In this document: piece by piece, positions 1,382 to 31,725 of the stretch | Layout of the letters: each line of letters opens with the position of its first letter | Position numbering within the stretch: position 1 is the stretch's first letter | Virus record (IMG/VR): IMGVR_UViG_2925891887_000008 | From: a virus | Lineage: Duplodnaviria; Heunggongvirae; Uroviricota; Caudoviricetes | Reading direction: 5' to 3' (one strand) | Length of the DNA stretch: 38,557 bases | The notes under the pieces: generated by a model | What the model was told of the DNA's origin: nothing | The model's input: the letters and a program-made list of their open reading frames with translations, nothing else | Databases searched by the model: none | Translations under genes and position numbers: made by a program

Positions 1382-3067
1382 GTGAATATAAACGTCGCCG
1401 AATTGTTAAATGGGAATTACATTTTGTTATTATTTGTGGTCCTCGCGCTTGGGCTATGTCTCGGAAAGTTACGACTTGGTTCGATCCAACTGGGTAATTC
1501 CATTGGCGTTTTAGTCGTATCGCTGTTATTAGGCCAACAACATTTCAGCATTAACACCGATGCGCTTAATCTTGGCTTTATGCTGTTTATTTTCTGCGTC
1601 GGGGTCGAAGCCGGACCGAACTTTTTTTCCATTTTTTTTCGCGATGGGAAAAATTACCTAATGTTAGCACTGGTGATGGTTGGCAGTGCGCTGGTGATCG
1701 CCTTAGGGTTAGGTAAGCTGTTTGGCTGGGATATTGGCCTGACGGCCGGTATGTTAGCAGGCTCTATGACGTCGACACCGGTTCTGGTCGGTGCTGGCGA
1801 TACACTGCGTCATTCCGGCATGGAAAGCAGGCAGCTCTCACTGGCACTGGATAATCTGAGCCTCGGGTATGCCTTAACCTATTTAATCGGTCTGGTGAGT
1901 TTGATTGTTGGTGCGCGTTACTTGCCGAAATTGCAGCATCAGGACTTACAGACCAGCGCCCAGCAAATCGCCCGCGAACGTGGCCTGGACACTGATGCCA
2001 ACCGTAAGGTTTATTTACCGGTGATCCGCGCCTATCGCGTCGGCCCGGAGCTGGTGGCCTGGACCGACGGCAAAAATCTGCGTGAACTGGGTATTTATCG
2101 ACAAACCGGCTGCTACATTGAACGTATTCGACGTAACGGGATTCTGGCAAATCCAGACGGTGATGCCGTGCTACAAATGGGCGATGAAATAGCGTTGGTA
2201 GGCTATCCCGACGCCCATGCCCGACTCGATCCCAGCTTCCGTAACGGTAAAGAAGTTTTCGATCGTGACCTTCTCGACATGCGTATCGTCACTGAAGAAG
2301 TGGTCGTTAAAAACCATAACGCTGTAGGTAAACGTCTCGCACAACTGAAGTTGACCGATCACGGTTGCTTCCTTAACCGCGTCATTCGTAGCCAGATTGA
2401 GATGCCGATAGATGACAACGTCGTGCTTAACAAAGGTGACGTTTTACAAGTCAGCGGTGATGCCCGTCGCGTAAAAACCATCGCCGATCGCATCGGCTTT
2501 ATCTCGATTCACAGCCAGGTCACTGACCTGCTGGCATTTTGCGCCTTCTTTGTTATTGGGCTGATGATCGGGATGATCACCTTCCAGTTCAGCACATTCA
2601 GTTTCGGCATGGGGAACGCTGCCGGGTTGTTATTCGCCGGAATTATGCTGGGCTTTATGCGTGCTAACCACCCGACCTTCGGTTACATTCCGCAAGGTGC
2701 ATTAAGCATGGTGAAAGAGTTCGGCTTGATGGTGTTTATGGCAGGCGTTGGTCTGAGCGCCGGTAGCGGTATTAATAACGGCCTGGGCGCGATTGGCGGT
2801 CAGATGTTGATTGCCGGATTAATTGTCAGTCTTGTGCCCGTGGTTATCTGTTTCTTGTTCGGTGCTTATGTATTGCGAATGAACCGCGCACTGTTGTTCG
2901 GCGCAATGATGGGCGCACGCACCTGCGCGCCGGCAATGGAGATCATCAGTGATACAGCTCGCAGTAACATCCCTGCGCTGGGCTATGCGGGCACCTACGC
3001 AATCGCCAACGTCCTGCTGACGCTGGCAGGGACAATCATCGTCATGGTATGGCCAGGATTAGGATAA
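1382..3067 (+). CDS. ybjL: Putative AAE-family transporter YbjL (561 aa)
   Basis: 561-aa ORF with GTG start, hydrophobic N- and C-terminal transporter halves flanking a soluble central region; matches remembered YbjL. Confidence 0.85.
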
Positions 3068-3110
3068 AACTGAAGTTGCCCTGAAAATGAAATTTTTTTG
3101 CACAACCGCA

Positions 3111-3137
3111 GAACTTTTCCGCAGGGCATCAGTCTTA
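3111..3137 (+). promoter_or_regulatory. Sigma-E-type promoter of rybB (-35 GAACTT, 16-bp spacer, -10 TCTTA)
   Basis: GAACTT at 3111-3116 and TCTTA at 3133-3137 immediately upstream of the RybB 5' end at 3144. Confidence 0.45.
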
Positions 3138-3143
3138 ATTAAT

Positions 3144-3222
3144 GCCACTGCTTTTCTTTGATGTCCCCATTTTGTGGAGCCCATCAACCCCGCCATTTCG
3201 GTTCAAGGTTGATGGGTTTTTT
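3144..3222 (+). ncRNA. rybB: RybB small RNA (sigma-E-dependent, Hfq-binding)
   Basis: Sequence GCCACTGCTTTTCTTTGATGTCCCC...GGTTGATGGGTTTTTT matches remembered RybB; ends in a GC-rich hairpin plus U-run. Confidence 0.8.
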
Positions 3223-3280
3223 GTTGCCTAAAATTTATTCTATTTAAAATCATGAGGTTAGAAGCACTGTTTTTTAACGA

Positions 3281-3302
3281 TGGCGACAAAATGGCGGCAG
3301 CG
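3281..3302. repeat. Prophage attachment core, left copy (TGGCGACAAAATGGCGGCAGCG)
   Basis: 22-bp sequence repeated at 38518-38539 with one mismatch (A/G at position 11); directly abuts the ogr stop codon. Confidence 0.6.
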
Positions 3303-3518
3303 TCAAAGAGAGAGCGCCACCTGTCCTGATTTCATTGGATGCGGCTGAACCGGATTTGACTCTTTTGGCGTTGCAATCGAACGAACAAAAGTTTCATGGG
3401 TAACAAAAGTATGGCTGCAGTTAATATTCTGGCACTGGTTGTAACGCTCTTTGGTCAATGAAGATACCTGAAAACTGCTGCGAGTATGGGCGGCACTTCC
3501 ACACAGTGGGCAAATCAT
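3303..3518 (-). CDS. ogr: Late transcription activator Ogr (zinc-finger)
   Basis: MICPLCGSAAH...KERYNQCQNINCSHTF resembles P2 Ogr (CPLC...CQNxNC); start taken at the internal Met that gives a 71-aa product. Confidence 0.85.
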   Translation of the reverse strand: MICPLCGSAAHTRSSFQVSSLTKERYNQCQNINCSHTFVTHETFVRSIATPKESNPVQPHPMKSGQVALSL

Positions 3519-3611
3519 CATTTTTCGAGTTCTCCCCATTTTTGCTAAATTCACAATAATGATACCGCATTATTCCATTTTGCAAACTTAAAAGTTCTCC
3601 ATTGCGAAGAA

Positions 3612-4712
3612 TCATTCCATTTCGAAATCATCAATCCTCACTTCAAGCTCCAGACTGGTCGTAAAACCGTTATCCGGGCTGACGGTATGCGTCAGAGTCG
3701 TAATGGTCCATTCCGCATCATCTATCGGCTGTTTAAAGCCACTGACTTTCACTGGCATTTCCGTGTAGAGATCTGCCCGACCTTCCGCCAGTTGTAGCGA
3801 GAATGACGCAACGCCGCGTTGCAGGCGTTCCCACTGCATTTTCGCCGCTCGTTCGGCGTTGCTCCGGTTGGCATAAGTGCGATTAAGTACCAGCACGTTT
3901 TCATCCGTACCCACCAGGTAATCGCCCTGCTTCGCTTCCGGCTCTTTCTTCTGCTTCTTAGTCCTGCGCTTACGCTTCACCGTGGTGCTTTCTTTCTTCG
4001 AGGGTTCGCGAGTATGCAACCAGCTGGCAATTACGCCCGTGTAAGCTCCGCGATCTGCCAGGGTAAAGCGGTGACTGTCGCCGTCCTTACGTGTGATAGT
4101 GATCACCGGCAGTGGTTTACCGCTGGCACTTTTACCCTGTCCCTGTCGGATGAATAACAGATTGCCATTTTTCACTGACGCGATAGCACCGTACTGGCGC
4201 GCCAGCCGCATCAGAAAACTGCCGTCACTCTCATTAGTCTGGTCTATATGTTCCACGGGCTTATCCGACAGGTCATTACCCAGTGCCATCTTCAGCTTGT
4301 GACGCGCGGCTATTTCCTTGACCACTTCCCCGACAGTGGTCTTGTGCCACGACTTTTCACGGCGGGTATTCAGCGTTTCACGAAAATCAGCACTTCGCGC
4401 CCGGATAGTCAGGCGGTCCGGTGCGCCAGTGTGTTCAATCTCGTCCACCGTGAATGCCCCTTTCGGGAAAAGCGGCTGCCCCTTCCAGCCCAGCGCCAGC
4501 GTAATGACCGCACCACGGCGCGGCAGCGCTATTTTTCCATCGGCGTCGTCCAGCTCCAGATCAAGCTGGTCCGCTTCAAAGCCCCGGTTATCCGTCAGCG
4601 TCAGCCTCATCAGGCGGTTATCCAGCACAGTGGTGATATCCCTGCCCTCAATACTGATGCTGAATGCGGGAGTTTTGTTGCCTTTGTTAAGCAGTTCAGA
4701 GCTGAAATTCAC
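3612..4712 (-). CDS. D: Tail protein D (late control gene D)
   Basis: 366-aa ORF at the P2 gene D position, downstream of U and T. Confidence 0.85.
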   Translation of the reverse strand: MNFSSELLNKGNKTPAFSISIEGRDITTVLDNRLMRLTLTDNRGFEADQLDLELDDADGKIALPRRGAVITLALGWKGQPLFPKGAFTVDEIEHTGAPDRLTIRARSADFRETLNTRREKSWHKTTVGEVVKEIAARHKLKMALGNDLSDKPVEHIDQTNESDGSFLMRLARQYGAIASVKNGNLLFIRQGQGKSASGKPLPVITITRKDGDSHRFTLADRGAYTGVIASWLHTREPSKKESTTVKRKRRTKKQKKEPEAKQGDYLVGTDENVLVLNRTYANRSNAERAAKMQWERLQRGVASFSLQLAEGRADLYTEMPVKVSGFKQPIDDAEWTITTLTHTVSPDNGFTTSLELEVRIDDFEME

Positions 4713-23792: not shown

Positions 23793-25559
23793 ATGAACAC
23801 CACACTGACACTCGCAGATCTCGATCCCCGTCGGCAGGCCATGCTGCTGTACTTTCAGGGATACCGCGTAGCCCGCATTGCTGAAATGCTGGGCGAGAAA
23901 GTTTCAACCGTTCACAGCTGGAAAAAACGCGACAAGTGGGGTGACTATGGGCCGCTGGATCAGATGCAGCTCACCACCGCCGCACGCTACTGCCAGCTCA
24001 TTATGAAGGAGCACAAAGAAGGGAAAGATTTCAAAGAGATTGACCTGCTGGCGCGCCAGTCGGAACGCCACGCGCGGATCGGCAAGTTTAACAATGGCGG
24101 CAACGAAGCCGACTTAAACCCTAACGTCGCCAACCGCAACAAAGGCCCACGCCGTCAGCCGGAAAAGAACGTTTTCACCGATGAACAGATTGAGAAGCTG
24201 GAAGAAATCTTCCATTCCTCCATGTTCAACTACCAGCGCCACTGGTGGGAAGCTGGAAAAACCAACCGCATCCGCAACCTGCTGAAGTCACGCCAGATCG
24301 GCGCGACCTTTTACTTTGCCCGTGAAGCCCTGATTGACGCCCTGCTTACCGGACGTAACCAGATTTTCCTTTCCGCCAGTAAGGCACAGGCTCACGTCTT
24401 TAAGCAGTACATCATCGACTTCGCTAAAGAAGTGGAGGTGGAGCTGAAAGGCGATCCGATGGTGCTTCCTAACGGGGCCACGCTTTACTTCCTCGGCACC
24501 AATGCCCGCACGGCCCAGAGTTATCACGGCAACCTGTATCTGGATGAATATTTCTGGATACCGAAATTCCAGGAGCTGCGCAAAGTGGCTTCCGGTATGG
24601 CTATTCACAAAAAATGGCGACAAACCTATTTTTCCACGCCATCCAGCCTGACACACAGTGCTTATCCGTTCTGGTCCGGTGCGCTGTTCAACCGTGGGCG
24701 CAACAAAGCCGATAAGGTGGACATCGACCTGTCCCACAGCAATCTGGCCCCCGGCCTGCTGTGCGCAGACGGGCAATACCGCCAGATAGTCACCGTAGAA
24801 GATGCGGTGCGCGGCGGCTGTAACCTGTTCGACCTTGACCAGTTGCGCATGGAATACAGCCCGGACGAATACCAGAACCTGCTGATGTGTGAGTTCGTGG
24901 ACGATCTCGCGTCCGTGTTCCCGCTCAGCGAGCTGCAGGCGTGCATGGTGGACAGTTGGGAAGTCTGGACCGACTTTCATGCACTGGCCCTGCGCCCGTT
25001 TGGCTGGCGCGAAGTGTGGATCGGTTATGACCCGGCAAAAGGTACGCAGAACGGCGACAGCGCCGGATGCGTGGTGGTGGCACCGCCAGCCGTGCCGGGC
25101 GGTAAGTTCCGCATTCTTGAGCGTCACCAGTGGCGCGGAATGGACTTCCGCGCCCAGGCTGACGCCATCAAAAAACTGACCGAACAGTATAACGTGACCT
25201 ATATCGGCATCGACTCGACCGGCGTCGGTCACGGGGTTTACGAGAACGTGAAAGCGTTTTTTCCTGCCGTCAGGGAGTTTGTCTACAACCCCAACGTTAA
25301 AAACGCCCTGGTACTCAAGGCCTACGACATTATCAGCCACCGCCGTCTGGAGTTTGACGCCGGGCACACCGACATTGCGCAGTCATTTATGGCAATCCGT
25401 CGCGCCACCACCGCCAGCGGCAACCGCCCGACCTATGAAGCCAGCCGCAGCGAAGAAGCCAGCCACGCCGATCTGGCCTGGGCAACGATGCACGCATTGT
25501 TTAACGAACCGCTGCAGGGCGAATCCGCCAATACCAGCAATATTGTGGAGATTTTTTGA
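23793..25559 (+). CDS. P: Terminase ATPase (large) subunit P
   Basis: 588-aa ORF; N-terminus MNTTLTLADLDPRRQAMLLYFQGYR... typical of P2-family P. Confidence 0.9.
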   Translation: MNTTLTLADLDPRRQAMLLYFQGYRVARIAEMLGEKVSTVHSWKKRDKWGDYGPLDQMQLTTAARYCQLIMKEHKEGKDFKEIDLLARQSERHARIGKFNNGGNEADLNPNVANRNKGPRRQPEKNVFTDEQIEKLEEIFHSSMFNYQRHWWEAGKTNRIRNLLKSRQIGATFYFAREALIDALLTGRNQIFLSASKAQAHVFKQYIIDFAKEVEVELKGDPMVLPNGATLYFLGTNARTAQSYHGNLYLDEYFWIPKFQELRKVASGMAIHKKWRQTYFSTPSSLTHSAYPFWSGALFNRGRNKADKVDIDLSHSNLAPGLLCADGQYRQIVTVEDAVRGGCNLFDLDQLRMEYSPDEYQNLLMCEFVDDLASVFPLSELQACMVDSWEVWTDFHALALRPFGWREVWIGYDPAKGTQNGDSAGCVVVAPPAVPGGKFRILERHQWRGMDFRAQADAIKKLTEQYNVTYIGIDSTGVGHGVYENVKAFFPAVREFVYNPNVKNALVLKAYDIISHRRLEFDAGHTDIAQSFMAIRRATTASGNRPTYEASRSEEASHADLAWATMHALFNEPLQGESANTSNIVEIF

Positions 25560-26626
25560 TGGGAAAGAGTAAGAAGAACCGCGCTGCGGCGACGAAACAG
25601 ATCCAGCTTAAAAGCCAGACTACAGCCGAAGCATTCAGCTTCGGCGATCCCGTTCCTGTTCTGGACCGCCGAGAACTGCTGGACTATGTGGAATGCGTAC
25701 AGATGGACCGTTGGTATGAGCCGCCCGTCAGCTTTGACGGACTGGCGCGCACCTTCCGCGCTGCCGTGCATCACAGTTCCCCGATTGCAGTAAAGTGCAA
25801 CATTCTGACCAGTACCTATATCTCTCATCCACTGCTCAGCCAACAGGCTTTTTCGCGTTTTGTGCAGGACTATCTGGTATTTGGTAACGCCTACCTGGAG
25901 AAACGCACGAATCGATTCGGTGAAGTTATCGCCCTTGAGCCTGCGCTGGCAAAATACACCCGACGCGGGTTAGACCTGGATACCTACTGGTTTGTGCAAT
26001 ACGGTATGGCCACGCAGCCGTATCAGTTCACGAAAGGCAGCATTTTTCATCTGATGGAACCGGACATCAACCAGGAGATCTACGGCCTGCCCGGTTATCT
26101 TTCAGCCATTCCGTCCGCCCTGCTCAATGAGTCCGCCACGCTGTTCCGTCGAAAGTATTACATTAACGGCAGTCATGCTGGCTTCATCATGTACATGACC
26201 GACGCTGCGCAGAACCAGGAGGATGTGAACAACCTCCGCAACGCGATGAAAAGCGCCAAAGGTCCAGGCAACTTCCGCAATCTGTTTATGTACTCGCCTA
26301 ACGGCAAAAAGGACGGACTTCAGATTATCCCGTTGTCAGAAGTCGCAGCGAAGGATGAGTTTCTGAATATCAAGAACGTGAGCCGCGATGACATGATGGC
26401 TGCGCATCGTGTGCCGCCACAAATGATGGGGATAATTCCCCAGAACATCGGCGGCTTTGGGGATGTAAGCAAAGCAAGTAAGGTATTTGTTCGTAACGAA
26501 CTGACGCCTTTACAAAGGCGAATACAAGAACTTAATGAGTGGCTATGTGACGAGGTTATCAAGTTTGACCCCTACAAACTTGATATTGAAGATAACAATC
26601 ACTCTGCTATCATACCTATCATCTAA
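25556..26626 (+). CDS. Q: Portal protein Q
   Basis: 356-aa ORF overlapping the P stop (ATGA). Confidence 0.9.
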   Translation: MMGKSKKNRAAATKQIQLKSQTTAEAFSFGDPVPVLDRRELLDYVECVQMDRWYEPPVSFDGLARTFRAAVHHSSPIAVKCNILTSTYISHPLLSQQAFSRFVQDYLVFGNAYLEKRTNRFGEVIALEPALAKYTRRGLDLDTYWFVQYGMATQPYQFTKGSIFHLMEPDINQEIYGLPGYLSAIPSALLNESATLFRRKYYINGSHAGFIMYMTDAAQNQEDVNNLRNAMKSAKGPGNFRNLFMYSPNGKKDGLQIIPLSEVAAKDEFLNIKNVSRDDMMAAHRVPPQMMGIIPQNIGGFGDVSKASKVFVRNELTPLQRRIQELNEWLCDEVIKFDPYKLDIEDNNHSAIIPII

Positions 26627-26631
26627 ATTTC

Positions 26632-26655
26632 AACCGCCATCAGGCGGTTTTTTGT
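26632..26655 (+). terminator. Intrinsic terminator after Q
   Basis: AACCGCC-ATCA-GGCGGTT hairpin followed by TTTTTTG. Confidence 0.6.
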
Positions 26656-26710
26656 TTCCAAACCAAACCTACTATGATACACACAGTAGGAAAAAAATTG
26701 GAGCATTTAT

Positions 26711-27337
26711 ATGGATATCGAAAAGCTAAAAGAATTTTACGAAAAACTTTACTTTCAGGAAACGGAAAATAAAGACAAGATTTACAACAGAATTCAAATG
26801 ATATTTGGATTAATAGTAATCGACGCAACTATCGTAACATATCTGCTTAAAAACACATCCTTTGAAAATCATGCATTCTTTGCCTGCATTGTTATAGGAC
26901 TTTCATTATTATCAGTGTTTTTTATTTATAAAGCCTGCATGCTCCTAAAAAAAGCATTTTGGGGTAATGAATTCAAATACATTCCCAAACCTAAGGAAAT
27001 AGACGAATACTACAATGGCCTCATTAAATATGAAGCAGACTATAAAAAATATTGTGATAATAATGGGCTTACCTATAATGGTGAGCACTCATCAAGTAAA
27101 AAGTTCAATGAATACTTAGTAAAACAACTAGTAGAGTGTACTAGTTGGAATACTAAGAAAAATGAAATGAGAACAAGTCAAATATATCGAGCCACTAAAT
27201 TCTTTTTTTTCTCACTAATTCCATTAGTGATAGCGGTTGGCTTTTTTTTAGCGATGGATCTCGATTCAGCCTCGCCAAGGAAGACTAATGAGCCACATTT
27301 CATTATTATACCTGTAGATAATATCAGGAGATTATGA
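26711..27337 (+). CDS. AT-rich cargo membrane protein (208 aa, about three TM helices), unknown function
   Basis: RBS GGAG, ATG at 26711; hydrophobic segments at about residues 30-46, 55-73 and 164-182. Confidence 0.5.
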   Translation: MDIEKLKEFYEKLYFQETENKDKIYNRIQMIFGLIVIDATIVTYLLKNTSFENHAFFACIVIGLSLLSVFFIYKACMLLKKAFWGNEFKYIPKPKEIDEYYNGLIKYEADYKKYCDNNGLTYNGEHSSSKKFNEYLVKQLVECTSWNTKKNEMRTSQIYRATKFFFFSLIPLVIAVGFFLAMDLDSASPRKTNEPHFIIIPVDNIRRL

Positions 27338-27462
27338 TGGGAAAAGCCCCTACACCTAACAAGCCACCAGCGAAGACTCCAACTCCGCCGACACCGCCGA
27401 CACCGCCTAAATCTAGGCTAGTGAGAGACGATGATTCGAAAGCCAAAAGCAAAAGAGGTTAA
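27334..27462 (+). CDS. Proline-rich micro-protein a (42 aa; KTPTPPTPPTPPK core, SRLVRD motif)
   Basis: ATG overlaps the upstream stop (ATGA), RBS AGGAG; 9-bp in-frame repeats. Confidence 0.4.
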   Translation: MMGKAPTPNKPPAKTPTPPTPPTPPKSRLVRDDDSKAKSKRG

Positions 27463-27468
27463 AGTATC

Positions 27469-27642
27469 ATGATAAAGCCCAGCAACGAAGGAACTGGAAA
27501 ACCAAATTCTACAAGTAAATCACCTGTACCGCCTCAGCCGCCTCAGCCGCCTCAGCCGCCTCAGCCGCCTCAAACAAGGTTAGTACGAGAAAGCTTTGGA
27601 GAATACATTTCAAAGAGAGATACGAAAAATGACAAAAAATAA
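27469..27642 (+). CDS. Proline-rich micro-protein b (57 aa; (PPQ)5 core, TRLVRE motif)
   Basis: RBS AGAGG, ATG at 27469; (CAGCCGCCT)x4 tandem repeat. Confidence 0.4.
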   Translation: MIKPSNEGTGKPNSTSKSPVPPQPPQPPQPPQPPQTRLVRESFGEYISKRDTKNDKK

Positions 27643-27736
27643 CGAGCAAAAACCACCACCACCACCACCACCACCACCACTACCACCATCGTCCCGCATG
27701 CTATTTGATCACGCGGCCCCCCCTAAGAAGAAATAA
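27629..27736 (+). CDS. Proline-rich micro-protein c (35 aa; P9-L-PP core, SRMLFD motif)
   Basis: ATG at 27629 overlapping the end of b; (CCA)n tract. Confidence 0.35.
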   Translation: MTKNNEQKPPPPPPPPPLPPSSRMLFDHAAPPKKK

Positions 27737-27778
27737 CCTTAAGCCTGCGACTTAGCAGGCTTTCTTCATTAGCGCGCG

Positions 27779-27797
27779 CTCGTATCCCCGCCACGCC
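27779..27797. other. Candidate cos site (19-nt cohesive end)
   Basis: CTCGTATCCCCGCCACGCC closely resembles my recollection of the P2/186 cos core (complement GGCGTGGCGGGGA...); lies between Q and A as expected. Confidence 0.35.
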
Positions 27798-28139
27798 TGC
27801 CCGCTTTATGTAGTGGTTTTCATGCAGGTGCATGATCTACGCAAAAGCCCGCCAGTTCTGGCGGGCCTTAGCAAAAACGATCCTCAAACGATCATGCAAT
27901 CTCATGCAGCATAGACATGCACAGACGAGTAAAGCGAATCGGACTTTACGCAAGGTGAACTCCTCAGCGGGCATAATCAGTATGTCGGAAGATCTCTAAA
28001 AATGAATAATTCGGTTAACAGGTATGCTTACAAAAGCATATATTTGATTAAAAATCATGTAAGGGGGAGGATCTCAAACTGAATCGCCACGGGTTTTACA
28101 AATTTCGATAGTCTCTCTAACGTTTCGGCTGAGGTCAAA

Positions 28140-29310: not shown

Positions 29311-31725
29311 TTAATACAGGTTTCGCCACTTATCATCTTCCTGCAAACGCTGGTTCCGATAGAAGATACGCAGGCCTGCTCCTGACGGAATACTGCCGCC
29401 GCGAAGGAGTAAATCGACCTCTTTCTCGCTGCCATTAAATCCTCTGGACTTCAGTTCATAGACGAGCTGCTGTCGCTGATGGTCTGTAATTCGCTGTTTG
29501 TAGTCTTTACGCCGTTTCGGTTTCACCAGGCGTAACCTTGCAGCCAGTTCCCGGCGCTCTTTTTTGCTCATACTGTGCAGGTAATCGTGCAACTCCTTGT
29601 CATCCATGCGGGTAATGTCCGTCCTAGTATCCCCATCAGCTGATTTGTCTTTCCCTTGTTGGTTCAAATTTTCAGCAAGGGGACAGTTATTGCCACGAGT
29701 CCAAGGGGCGCAAGCGCCCTGGTCGGCTGCCGCCTCCTGAACGTCAACGGCCTTACGAACCATTTTCCACTTCACCGCATGAGTGCAGATCTTGCCCTCT
29801 GCAATGGGTGACCAGATGCCATAAATACGAATACCGTGATCGCCATATGCGGTCGGTTCTTCGTTGATTTCATAAGCAGTTCTGATGAGGTGATATTTGC
29901 GGGGAACCAGTACGCCTCCCTGCTTCATGATGTAGGTGGCAAAACAACCAGCATCGGCAGCAGCCAGGATTGCATCAAGGCGCGGGTTATCCAGTACCGG
30001 CGCACCTGCTTTTTTGTCCCCCTGTTGCCTTGCCGCCTGACCAGCCAGCAATCGCAGTTCACGGTAAGCCTGACGCCCCGGAATGCCAAAGAAGCGGAAT
30101 TGCTGAACACGATGCAGAGACGCCCAGGCATTAACGTATTCAGCGTTATCACGCAGGGATTTACCCGTTTCCTTGCTGATCTCGCCAGCCAGACCACGCC
30201 CGTCAATGTTCTTACTGATGTATTTCGCGATGTAGCTTGTTGGCGTACCTTTGCGCGGGTTTATCAGCTCAGACTTAAAGCGTGGTCCCGTGTTATTACC
30301 CAGCTCCTCGCGGTCTTCACGAATGGCAAACTTACGCAACAAAGCAGTAATGGTGCGGCGATCTTTTTTGCGCATAAAACACAACAGGTGCCAGTGAACT
30401 GTACCGTCATGATGCGGCTCAGCCACCCGCACGCCATACCAGCGCAATCCGGCTTTGTGCATCGCCTTACGAAATGCAGCAAACATGCCGACCAGATAAT
30501 CACTGCTTTGTCTTACCGTCGTATTTGTCCAGGTCGGGTTGGGCCTGCCGTTATTTAGCGTGGAATGGAAACGTGACGGACAGGTGATGGTGTAGAAAAC
30601 GGCGCAGTCACCGCGCATTTCCGCGATAAGCTCCAGACCTTTAACACAGGCCATCATCTCATTGCGGCGATGCGCAGGGTTGCTGCTGCTGGCGTTTACC
30701 ACATCCTCCATGTCCAGCGTGTCGCCGTCTTCGTTCACCAGTTCATGAGAACGGAAAAACTCCAGCGACTTACGGCGCTGCTCACGTTTATGCATCATGG
30801 CTTCATAGCTGACATAGGGAGATGCTTTTTTGCTGACCAGGCAAACAGCACGCAACTGCTCTTCCCGCCATTCGCAACGCATCTTCCATAATTTCCGGTA
30901 CCACCAATCGGCGCACAACATACGCGCCAGCGAACCCGGAATGAGTTCATAGGGCACGGGTTTACGGCGGTTTCTTTTCCGGCGGAGTTGCTCAAACGCA
31001 GGCGGTATGACATCCAGTCGCAGGGTTTCTGCTGCCACCTTTTCCCATGTCTTGCGGATTTCTTCTGGCTTAACGTCATCGGTGGCATACAAATCGCCAC
31101 AAGCTGCATCAAGGCACATGCTCATATGCGCAGCAACAAGGGTGGACAGGCGTTTCACCTGATCCTGACTCATTTCAGGCAGAATCAGCAGGCCGTCCAG
31201 CCCTTCATGGCTTGCCATAAAGCGAAAAGAAGTGGATAGCTGACTGTCGCGTACATGCTCCAGCCGTTCCAGACATGGCTTAATCGTCTCACGTAAATAG
31301 CGGGAATAAGCCTTTGGCCTGCCAAGGCTGCTGAAGTATTCAATACGTTGCATCAGCGGCCTGCTGATATGGGAAGGCTGGGCGTTAACGTCTGCCAGAA
31401 TGACCATGTCCGGGTTAAAACGCTGCTGCTCATGCGCCAACTTTGCCCGGCTAATGAACTTATCCTGCTCCATTTCGCGCTGGACAGGATCACGGGATTC
31501 ATTAAAGAAATAACGCTCCCAAACCTGATCACTCAGTGCCTCGCGGCGCAGTTGTTCCTGCTCGTTATCGGCAGCGTACAGAGTGATCAGGTTTGAAAGC
31601 GCAGAAACCGGCGCAACTTCCGCCGGGTCCAGATAAGGGTTAATAGCCTTTTTCGGGCTGTTCCATGAGAATGCTGCGGCGGCCTCGTTAAAGCCGCTGC
31701 AGTTGTTCATATCAGCATGGCTCAT
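29311..31725 (-). CDS. A: Replication initiation endonuclease A (rolling-circle)
   Basis: 804-aa ORF at the P2 gene A position, upstream of cos. Confidence 0.85.

Follow-up and report, generated by a model that had tools for sequence, protein, structure and literature searches.

Among the described systems closest to the one reported here are the SLATT, PycTM and CBASS two-transmembrane (2TM) effectors, small helical membrane proteins with an N-terminal helix pair and a helical cytoplasmic region, which occur in defence islands and on mobile elements; the SLATT nomenclature reportedly goes back to Burroughs et al. in 2015. Rousset et al. (2022, PMC9122126) showed that P2-like phages keep a store of anti-phage systems in the cos-proximal hotspot between gpA and gpQ. 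The subject of this work is a cassette that sits inside that hotspot, between gpQ and gpA next to cos, in IMG/VR virus record IMGVR_UViG_2925891887_000008, a P2-like Escherichia coli prophage. The whole 38,557-nucleotide (nt) stretch, referred to below as the window, is 100% identical to strain CFSAN064035. The cassette is a four-gene unit (window positions 26711–27736) consisting of a gene for a 208-residue membrane protein and three very small open reading frames (micro-ORFs), which we call a, b and c, with the gpQ terminator upstream and a terminator of its own downstream.

Our conclusion is that this is a real feature of an undescribed kind, and a good candidate for a phage-defence or toxin-control module. 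We read it as a self-contained, horizontally acquired operon in which a membrane effector is controlled by proline-rich partner micro-proteins, and we put the probability of this reading at roughly 0.5. Its parts differ in strength: the existence of a conserved interacting module is well supported, a role in defence moderately so, and the exact mechanism weakly. The initial annotation, made from the letters of the window alone, had placed the four ORFs where we find them, its description being accurate in every checkable detail, and had taken them for a cargo cassette containing three paralogous proline-rich micro-ORFs of shared architecture, as our analysis bears out. It had also called the organisation undescribed. 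This view stands: RefSeq's PGAP annotates the 208-residue gene only and none of the micro-ORFs, and no paper in the literature searched pairs a membrane protein with proline-rich micro-proteins. Table S5A of PMC9122126 gives the locus (NZ_CP031134, WP_048237166) as 'hypothetical + hypothetical + hypothetical + DinI'; the gene lists of that study do not contain the three micro-ORFs and, judging by its text and tables, the locus was not among the systems tested there.

Comparison of related loci shows that the micro-ORFs are real genes and that all four genes are under purifying selection. Pooled over seven locus pairs, the ratio of nonsynonymous to synonymous differences per site (pN/pS) is 0.28 in the annotated frame, which contains 0 stops, against 0.36–1.68 and 19–94 stops in the five other frames. 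The pairwise ratio of substitution rates (dN/dS), taken over nine locus pairs, lies between 0.00 and 0.36 in 18 of 23 gene-by-pair comparisons (pS 0.16–0.92), the synonymous sites in the remaining five being too saturated for the ratio to be computed (pS up to 0.92). Where computable, the values are 0.09–0.27 for a, 0.12–0.36 for b and 0.00–0.20 for c. In the lineages of loci L012, L026 and L033 the three micro-ORFs occupy three different frames, each with its own ATG and Shine-Dalgarno (SD)-like tract, and across lineages neighbouring ORFs either overlap by 4, 8, 14, 17 or 23 nt or are separated by gaps of 3–6 nt. The a, b and c types are still recognisable at about 50% identity of the partner membrane protein, and gene callers applied to two short-read assemblies (L042 and L043) independently call all three.

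These results bear on a rival explanation, namely that the region is the decayed remnant of one longer gene, or else non-coding or antisense repeat DNA. The initial annotation had observed that a and b share a frame with a single TAA between them, and had accordingly kept a stop-interrupted gene as an alternative. The shared frame is present here (TAA plus 6 nt) but does not hold as a general feature; since the frames differ in L012, L026 and L033, it is incidental and peculiar to this lineage. The decay explanation could further appeal to a single-nucleotide change that fuses b to c in one E. coli copy, to the omission of the ORFs by PGAP, and to the antisense call made in one genome. It is refuted by the frame differences, by selection confined to the annotated frames with dN/dS well below 1, and by repeat-length polymorphism that stays in frame; the retention of a, b and c orthology and the lack of any match above noise in an Rfam search of the region point the same way, and we assign it next to no probability. 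An antisense poly-Gly ORF was likewise ruled out by the frame-specific substitution analysis.

The sequence of a is (M)MGKAPTPNKPPAKTPTPPTPPTPPKSRLVRDDDSKAKSKRG, that of b reads ...PPQPPQPPQPPQPPQTRLVRESFGEYISKRDTKNDKK, and that of c is MTKNNEQKPPPPPPPPPLPPSSRMLFDHAAPPKKK. Each carries a motif of its own type, R-[LIV]-V-x-[DE]-D-D-S-K in a, R-[LM]-V-[RQ]-[EG]-S-[YF] in b and R-x-x-F-D-H in c, the last being the most conserved of the three; across lineages the motifs read R-[LIV]-V-x-[ED]-DDSKA, R-[LM]-V-R-E-S-Y-G and R-x-x-F-D-H-[DA]-D...KKK, respectively. None of the three contains Cys or a hydrophobic N-terminus, and hydropathy over 19 residues stays below 0 throughout. At the DNA level, the proline cores correspond to three perfect tandem-repeat tracts (Table 1). 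Among E. coli copies that are 99% identical, these tracts vary by whole 9-nt units in a and b (3–6 repeat copies in b) and by one 3-nt unit in c, and the frame is kept in every repeat-length variant.

The initial annotation credited each micro-ORF with its own SD sequence, and an SD-like purine tract is indeed found upstream of each: AGGAG for a, GAGG 9 nt upstream of b, and a weaker AGAGAG for c. For a, the second ATG (27337) is better spaced, giving a TGATG overlap with the stop of the membrane gene (an ATGA overlap if counted from 27334), while c overlaps b by 14 nt in the +1 frame and has its own ATG. Judging from this sequence arrangement, translation of the three micro-ORFs is coupled. 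A programmed frameshift leading from b into c, for which the A-rich overlap and the variant in locus L005 might be cited, was rejected: in every lineage c retains an ATG, an SD-like tract and the conserved N-terminus MTKNEK, and the overlap is of variable length. The L005 variant itself (E. coli PC-NDM34; 1410–1583, corresponding to 27620–27660 of the window) has A5 for A6 in the b/c overlap and one extra CCA; the change joins b and c into one ORF, and the antisense ORF that PGAP places at this site is spurious. Either natural slippage or a sequencing error in the homopolymer could account for the variant. A further homopolymer indel, C7 to C6, is found in locus L004 (E. coli CRE10; at 27718–27724 of the window), where it swaps the APPKKK C-terminus of c for a longer, unrelated tail in an otherwise identical cassette.

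The partnership between membrane protein and micro-ORFs recurs well outside the window. In 13 of the 14 independent lineages examined, either between one and three proline-rich micro-ORFs stand behind the membrane gene or the membrane protein itself has the same module at its C-terminus, a pattern far beyond chance. Conservation of the peptide architecture in related elements, on which the initial annotation had made its proposal depend, thus extends to distant elements as well. Micro-ORFs lie downstream of homologues at 24–75% identity. The close homologues (47–75%), all with small ORFs behind them, come from a metagenome, Serratia, Edwardsiella, other E. coli P2-like prophages and IMG/VR contigs; the distant ones (24–36%) come from Vibrio, Photobacterium, Marinomonas, Endozoicomonas, Alteromonas, Aliiglaciecola, a Campylobacterota metagenome-assembled genome, Mixta and metagenome contigs, and carry one or two proline-rich ORFs of 33–51 residues, for example MPQKPPPPPPPPARNVRGDKPPPQPRPAPKPTKK. 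A profile of the c type searched against 5.8 billion proteins gave five matches, all small and unannotated, and no fusion to other domains; the two that were looked up by locus lie behind the membrane gene in a P2 context.

The module consists of a poly-proline run and, behind it, the strand-like motif R-x-hydrophobic-hydrophobic-E-[DSN]. About half of the family has it as an in-frame C-terminal extension of the membrane protein. Of 125 members with at least 225 residues, 84 carry such a C-terminal proline cluster behind a low-complexity linker, and most modules contain runs of 5–11 consecutive prolines. A Met lies at most 22 residues upstream of the proline cluster in 67 of the 84 fused tails, where 23% would be expected (binomial p=2e-28; the 84 representatives share at most 50% identity, yet are not fully independent). 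In L036, the sole Met-bearing fusion for which DNA was at hand, AAGGAG stands 8 nt ahead of this Met, an ideal spacing. Many of the 'fused' genes probably also make the module as a free micro-protein. Some apparent tails are of another kind. In locus L020 (Alteromonas, 3001–3678) the membrane ORF continues, in a different frame, across the stretch that encodes the poly-proline run, and so overlaps the genuine micro-ORF; by extension from L020, the poly-Thr/Ala or His-rich tails of representatives P0108, P0139, P0145 and P0167 would be the product of the same read-through, that is, overlap or gene-calling artefacts and not a separate domain.

Several copies depart from the arrangement in the window. 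The Serratia marcescens loci L009–L011 (4001–5050) have b- and c-type micro-ORFs only, with no a in the 128-nt gap; a cos core lies about 50 nt downstream, and upstream there is no portal gene, copCD-yebY or other chromosomal genes taking its place, with an IS3 transposase, a BRCT-like gene and a reverse transcriptase downstream. The metagenome locus L007 shows the same linkage to cos without visible P2 genes. Cassette and cos seem to move together, perhaps as part of a satellite or of what is left of a prophage. In Edwardsiella tarda, locus L016 (4001–4982) is a copy in a lambdoid prophage, with an antirepressor-like gene on one side and a ParDE/holin/lysozyme block on the other. It is decaying: the membrane gene is frameshifted into a 171-residue ORF and a 36-residue fragment, and of the micro-ORFs a and c have stayed intact but b has been destroyed.

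The recurrence of the fused form also bears on the first of three functions that the initial annotation had suggested for the micro-ORFs, that they encode ribosomally made, proline-rich peptides of an antimicrobial or effector type, which the membrane protein would export or confer immunity to. Such a role would suit proline-rich, basic products encoded beside a membrane protein, and some distant versions contain stretches resembling those of proline-rich peptides, such as PQPRPAPKP. There is, however, no signal peptide, leader, protease or ABC transporter; the core is a poly-proline run with a strand motif and not the alternating Pro-Arg of known peptides; and in much of the family the module is covalently joined to the membrane protein, against which AlphaFold2 models it confidently. 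We consider this explanation very unlikely.

The 208-residue protein has three hydrophobic segments, at about residues 28–46, 55–78 and 163–182. An N-terminal amphipathic helix (LYEKLYF) is followed by the first two transmembrane helices (TM1 and TM2), which lead into a conserved loop, AFWGNxFKY. Next come a helical bundle, in which N-x3-N-x2-R is invariant, the third helix (TM3) and a DLDSASPRK motif. Behind TM3 (residues 183–208, window 27187–27337), the split enterobacterial forms close with a strand-like motif that is conserved among them, [YF]-[IL]-I-[IV]-P-x-[ED]-N-[IV]-R-R, and which is absent from long and fused members and has an AlphaFold2 confidence score (pLDDT) of about 50, leaving it unmodelled. 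A profile built from eight homologues and run against 1.84 billion representative proteins recovered 1079 clusters (50% identity) at E≤1e-3 and 318 at E≤1e-10. This is a large uncharacterised family, widespread as a whole, with no entry in Pfam, NCBIfam or the literature. The 208-residue protein matches nothing in Pfam, NCBIfam or among the sequences of solved structures in the PDB, and gives no match at E≤1 to the Pfam and NCBIfam models SLATT_1-6, PF18967 PycTM and SLATT. Of 64 family members scanned, none could be assigned to a family through Pfam, NCBIfam or PDB sequences, and none matches the SLATT or PycTM models at E≤0.01, and 62 homologues have no precomputed Pfam domain and no informative name; the exception is one UniRef entry in which a near-identical protein is called a SLATT-domain protein. 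A search of GenBank phages by tblastn gave no match. In PHROG, residues 8–191 match phrog_36961 (E=1.9e-17), a family without known function that adds no functional information. PADLOC-DB 2.0.0 returned a weak 2TM effector match for the 208-residue protein (2e-4) and nothing for a, b or c; among family members its PycTM model gave weak matches in 5 of 64 (best 2.8e-6) and its reverse transcriptase-associated SLATT model a weak match at 8e-3. Scattered, single, sub-threshold matches to Frag1, 8xMP and holins were treated as noise.

AlphaFold2 models the window protein alone as four long helices with no strand. For the fused representative P0068, with 32 sequences in the alignment, pLDDT stays below 50 along the linker of 50 residues, which is left unmodelled, while the module reaches 90 (residues 251–260) and 78 (261–270). 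Since the only two multi-residue strands in this model are residues 263–266 (RPLV, in the module) and 92–95 (TYET, in the AFWGNTYET loop after TM2), the module strand is predicted to pair with the conserved WGNxY loop just behind TM2. The proline run, which is modelled with high confidence, may pack as a polyproline-II segment on nearby aromatic residues. Loop and module co-vary by clade: FWGN occurs with R-x-phi-phi-E (phi, a hydrophobic residue), LTG[YH] with [LV]Q[VY]STEDF, and F[YF]GH with KR-x-I-x-EDV, which fits a Trp-Arg contact. The distribution of charge in the membrane protein favours an orientation with the N-terminus and the loop inside. Of the functions suggested initially, disordered adaptors that bind a partner come closest to this evidence.

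Where the family occurs elsewhere, its neighbours are mostly defence genes: AAA_21 with HNH, ThsB_TIR with a caspase, NERD, a type ISP restriction-modification system with AAA_16, and PycTM with AGS_C and GmrSD. In L038 the PycTM and AGS_C genes are 3–5 kb upstream with two genes between, and so lie outside the operon. In L021 (Campylobacterota metagenome-assembled genome, 2900–4274) the micro-ORF is followed on the same strand, with gaps of about 10 nt, by genes for a ThsB-type TIR protein and a caspase-family peptidase; this arrangement may be a larger composite system in that lineage. Other sites of insertion are the interval between gpV and gpS in Mixta, which is another P2 moron site, and a lambdoid prophage near the lysis genes.

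Inner-membrane proteins encoded by prophages at moron sites are classically exclusion factors. The distribution just described, with two P2 moron sites (Q-cos and gpV-gpS) and a position near lysis genes, therefore suits a different explanation, in which the membrane protein serves superinfection exclusion or some other phage-benefit function, such as blocking the entry of competitor DNA or timing lysis, with the proline-rich proteins as structural adaptors and no suicide involved. The fused tails, if periplasmic (three helices, N-terminus in), would form a rigid proline rod facing the incoming phage. Set against this, the free micro-proteins have no export signal, many family members reside in chromosomal defence islands and not in prophages, and the weak similarities point to suicide-type effectors. 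We regard exclusion of this kind as possible, if rather unlikely.

Our preferred reading is built of two parts, a three-helix inner-membrane protein and a dedicated proline-rich partner that is here split off and triplicated, so that a, b and c would be three non-redundant micro-proteins. The module is predicted to bind the membrane protein by laying a short strand against the WGNxY loop, and the free micro-proteins would be cytoplasmic and dock on the cytoplasmic juxtamembrane face. Because of the cos-proximal defence hotspot, the defence-gene neighbours elsewhere and the faint similarity to PycTM and 2TM effectors, we infer that the membrane protein serves a conflict system carried by the prophage as its effector, acting through membrane permeabilisation or exclusion, and that the activity of this effector would be set by the micro-proteins. 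In this sense the cassette is probably an abortive-infection or exclusion module.

Without elongation factor P (EF-P), ribosomes stall on proline runs. In the version that we prefer, the micro-proteins would be labile inhibitory partners, whose supply through long proline runs would need EF-P and unimpaired elongation; phage takeover of translation would deplete them first and free the effector, as in abortive infection. A more specific form is a translation-surveillance immune module, in which short-lived, EF-P-dependent proline-rich micro-proteins would hold a pore-forming effector in check until a phage that slows host translation released it; loss of the brake would lead to membrane collapse, and sub-functionalised a, b and c with slippage-prone repeats would tune the threshold. 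We hold this form to be unlikely. The same property of proline runs could be used differently, the micro-ORFs acting mainly in cis as EF-P-dependent stalling elements that govern messenger RNA stability or expression, with functionless peptides, which is close to the EF-P sensors that the initial annotation had listed among its suggestions. The 5–11 consecutive prolines of most modules agree with such a role. The micro-ORFs are downstream of the only large gene, however, with nothing behind them to regulate; their non-proline residues are conserved, paralogue-specific (DDSKAK, RESYG, FDH) and under selection, as the low dN/dS attests; and the module also exists as a confidently modelled domain of a fused protein. 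Action in cis alone thus appears quite improbable.

A number of results weigh against the operon of effector and partner micro-proteins as we read it. On the comparative side, the most distant member, a 160-residue Paraburkholderia protein (L040), has no micro-ORF; the Vibrio and Photobacterium fusions lack an internal Met, but do have a separate micro-ORF; 30 of the 84 fused tails have no PPP run, which counts against the EF-P part; and L041 is surrounded by metabolic genes, so that not every context is defence-related. On the structural side, AlphaFold2 takes no account of the membrane, and the strand pairing is deduced from the two strands being the only multi-residue ones in the model; the co-variation of loop and module is confounded by phylogeny; and fold searches with the membrane protein return generic helical bundles only. 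The topology is a particular difficulty, in that with three helices the WGNxY loop faces one side of the membrane and the C-terminal tail the other. Docking of a fused tail in cis would then be impossible unless TM3 were uninserted at rest; free cytoplasmic micro-proteins, as found here, are on this topology sensible ligands of the loop. The case for a defence role comes from context and sub-threshold similarity, the SLATT and PycTM models of Pfam and NCBIfam finding no match in the family. As for the labile, EF-P-dependent brake, the idea is pure inference, and the micro-proteins may be activators or sensors in place of inhibitors.

The features of the locus are collected in Table 1.

Table 1. 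Features of the cassette and its surroundings, in window coordinates.
Feature	Position	Strand	Remarks
Terminase gpP	23793–25559	+	
Portal gpQ	25556–26626	+	
Intrinsic terminator after gpQ	26632–26656	+	7-bp stem, 5 GC pairs, then T run
Inverted repeat in the 60-nt leader of the cassette	26668–26690		Stem scored as terminator-like on the minus strand by the scan
Membrane protein gene	26711–27337	+	208 residues; WP_048237166
Micro-ORF a	27334–27462	+	42 residues (41 from the ATG at 27337)
Tandem repeat, core of a	27385–27407	+	CCGCCGACA; 9 nt x 2.6, perfect
Micro-ORF b	27469–27642	+	57 residues
Tandem repeat, core of b	27529–27572	+	CCGCCTCAG; 9 nt x 4.9, perfect
Micro-ORF c	27629–27736	+	35 residues
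Tandem repeat, core of c	27652–27688	+	ACC/CCA; 3 nt x 12.3, perfect
Bidirectional intrinsic terminator closing the cassette	27741–27762		8-bp stem, 5 GC pairs
P2/186-type cos core	27786–27797	minus	GGCGTGGCGGGG; single occurrence in the window
gpA (replication)	29311–31725	minus	

The terminator after gpQ (26632–26649; 26632–26656 in Table 1) sets the cassette apart from the late P-Q operon, and the cassette stretch has a GC fraction of 0.30–0.32 against 0.51–0.59 in the gpP and gpQ flanks. Within the leader, a TATGAT hexamer resembling a -10 element (26673–26678) is overlapped by the inverted repeat, which may be a candidate promoter or operator; a scan for the sigma-70 consensus found no strong or convincing promoter match for the cassette. 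The P2-type cos core lies about 50 nt from the end of the unit. We take the 12-mer GGCGTGGCGGGG to be the cos end from the P2/186 cohesive-end sequence and from the conservation of 27771–27922 in P2-like phages. Because this core is found where it is, the 'Q-to-cos' position given in the initial annotation is correct. The core is outside the operon, yet is its constant neighbour in all enterobacterial copies. On the minus strand, in most E. coli copies, PGAP places over the terminator and cos a pseudogene ('hypothetical protein, internal stop', 27723–27905), which looks spurious since the stretch is the conserved cos block of P2-like phages. The cassette is rare, being present in 14 of 5426 complete E. 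coli genomes, with a 51%-identical sister type in 6. Its place is on the gpQ side of cos, and the cargo found across from it, towards gpA, varies between copies. Across cos and outside the cassette, the window also encodes a 141-residue signal-peptide protein, WP_000834899 (28140–28565, + strand), which occurs at least 32 times, with many different cargos, in the hotspot tables of Rousset et al. (PMC9122126).

If our reading is right, a widespread unannotated family and a new class of micro-protein partner, missed by standard gene callers, would join the conflict systems of mobile elements, and part of the 'hypothetical' content of the P2 hotspot would be a four-gene operon and not a single gene. 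With its predicted docking of the proline-rich module on a conserved loop beside the membrane, the reading offers a concrete, mutable interface, and the possible link between EF-P and a membrane effector would make 'sensing of translation status' testable in E. coli.

Finally, we compare the cassette with the systems it most resembles. In P2, old and tin lie between cos and gpA, whereas the cassette lies on the gpQ side of cos. It is otherwise like such cargo in its hotspot, its AT-richness and its rarity. With toxin-antitoxin and abortive-infection pairs it shares a two-part operon, tight translational coupling, a small, unstructured, basic partner and a site in prophages or defence islands; unlike in toxin-antitoxin pairs, the large gene comes first and the partner, of 33–57 residues, is proline-rich, can number as many as three paralogues and frequently forms a single protein with the putative toxin. 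TonB, TolA and Rz1 provide a precedent for proline-rich segments attached to, or encoded beside, a membrane-anchored protein, Rz1 being itself small, proline-rich and phage-borne. Here, however, there is no TonB/TolA C-terminal domain and no ExbBD or TolQR partner, the membrane protein has three helices in place of one, and a, b and c lack the Cys, lipobox and signal sequence of an Rz1-type o-spanin and lie outside a lysis cassette. From proline-rich antimicrobial peptides a, b and c differ in having no signal or leader and in a core made of poly-Pro, TPP or PPQ repeats plus R-x-phi-phi-[ED].

A further comparison is with SLATT, PycTM and CBASS 2TM effectors, which the membrane protein resembles in its general build, its genomic settings, its weak PADLOC similarity and the UniRef name of its near-identical relative. 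TM1, TM2 and the helical bundle are present in the family, alongside a third, C-terminal membrane helix that those effectors do not have. The family also differs from them in matching no curated Pfam or NCBIfam model and in its motifs WGNxY, N-x3-N-x2-R and DLDxSSPRK. A nucleotide-signal partner (SMODS/CD-NTase, Pycsar cyclase, SLOG or reverse transcriptase) is found in the operon neither here nor in related loci; the constant partner is instead a proline-rich micro-protein, which is not known from described SLATT systems. None of the traits that define SLATT/PycTM systems, proline-rich antimicrobial peptides, spanins or TonB-like proteins is clearly shown by the cassette. Should the faint link to SLATT/PycTM be confirmed, the cassette would count for less, as a further form of that effector class in which a peptide regulator replaces the nucleotide regulator.

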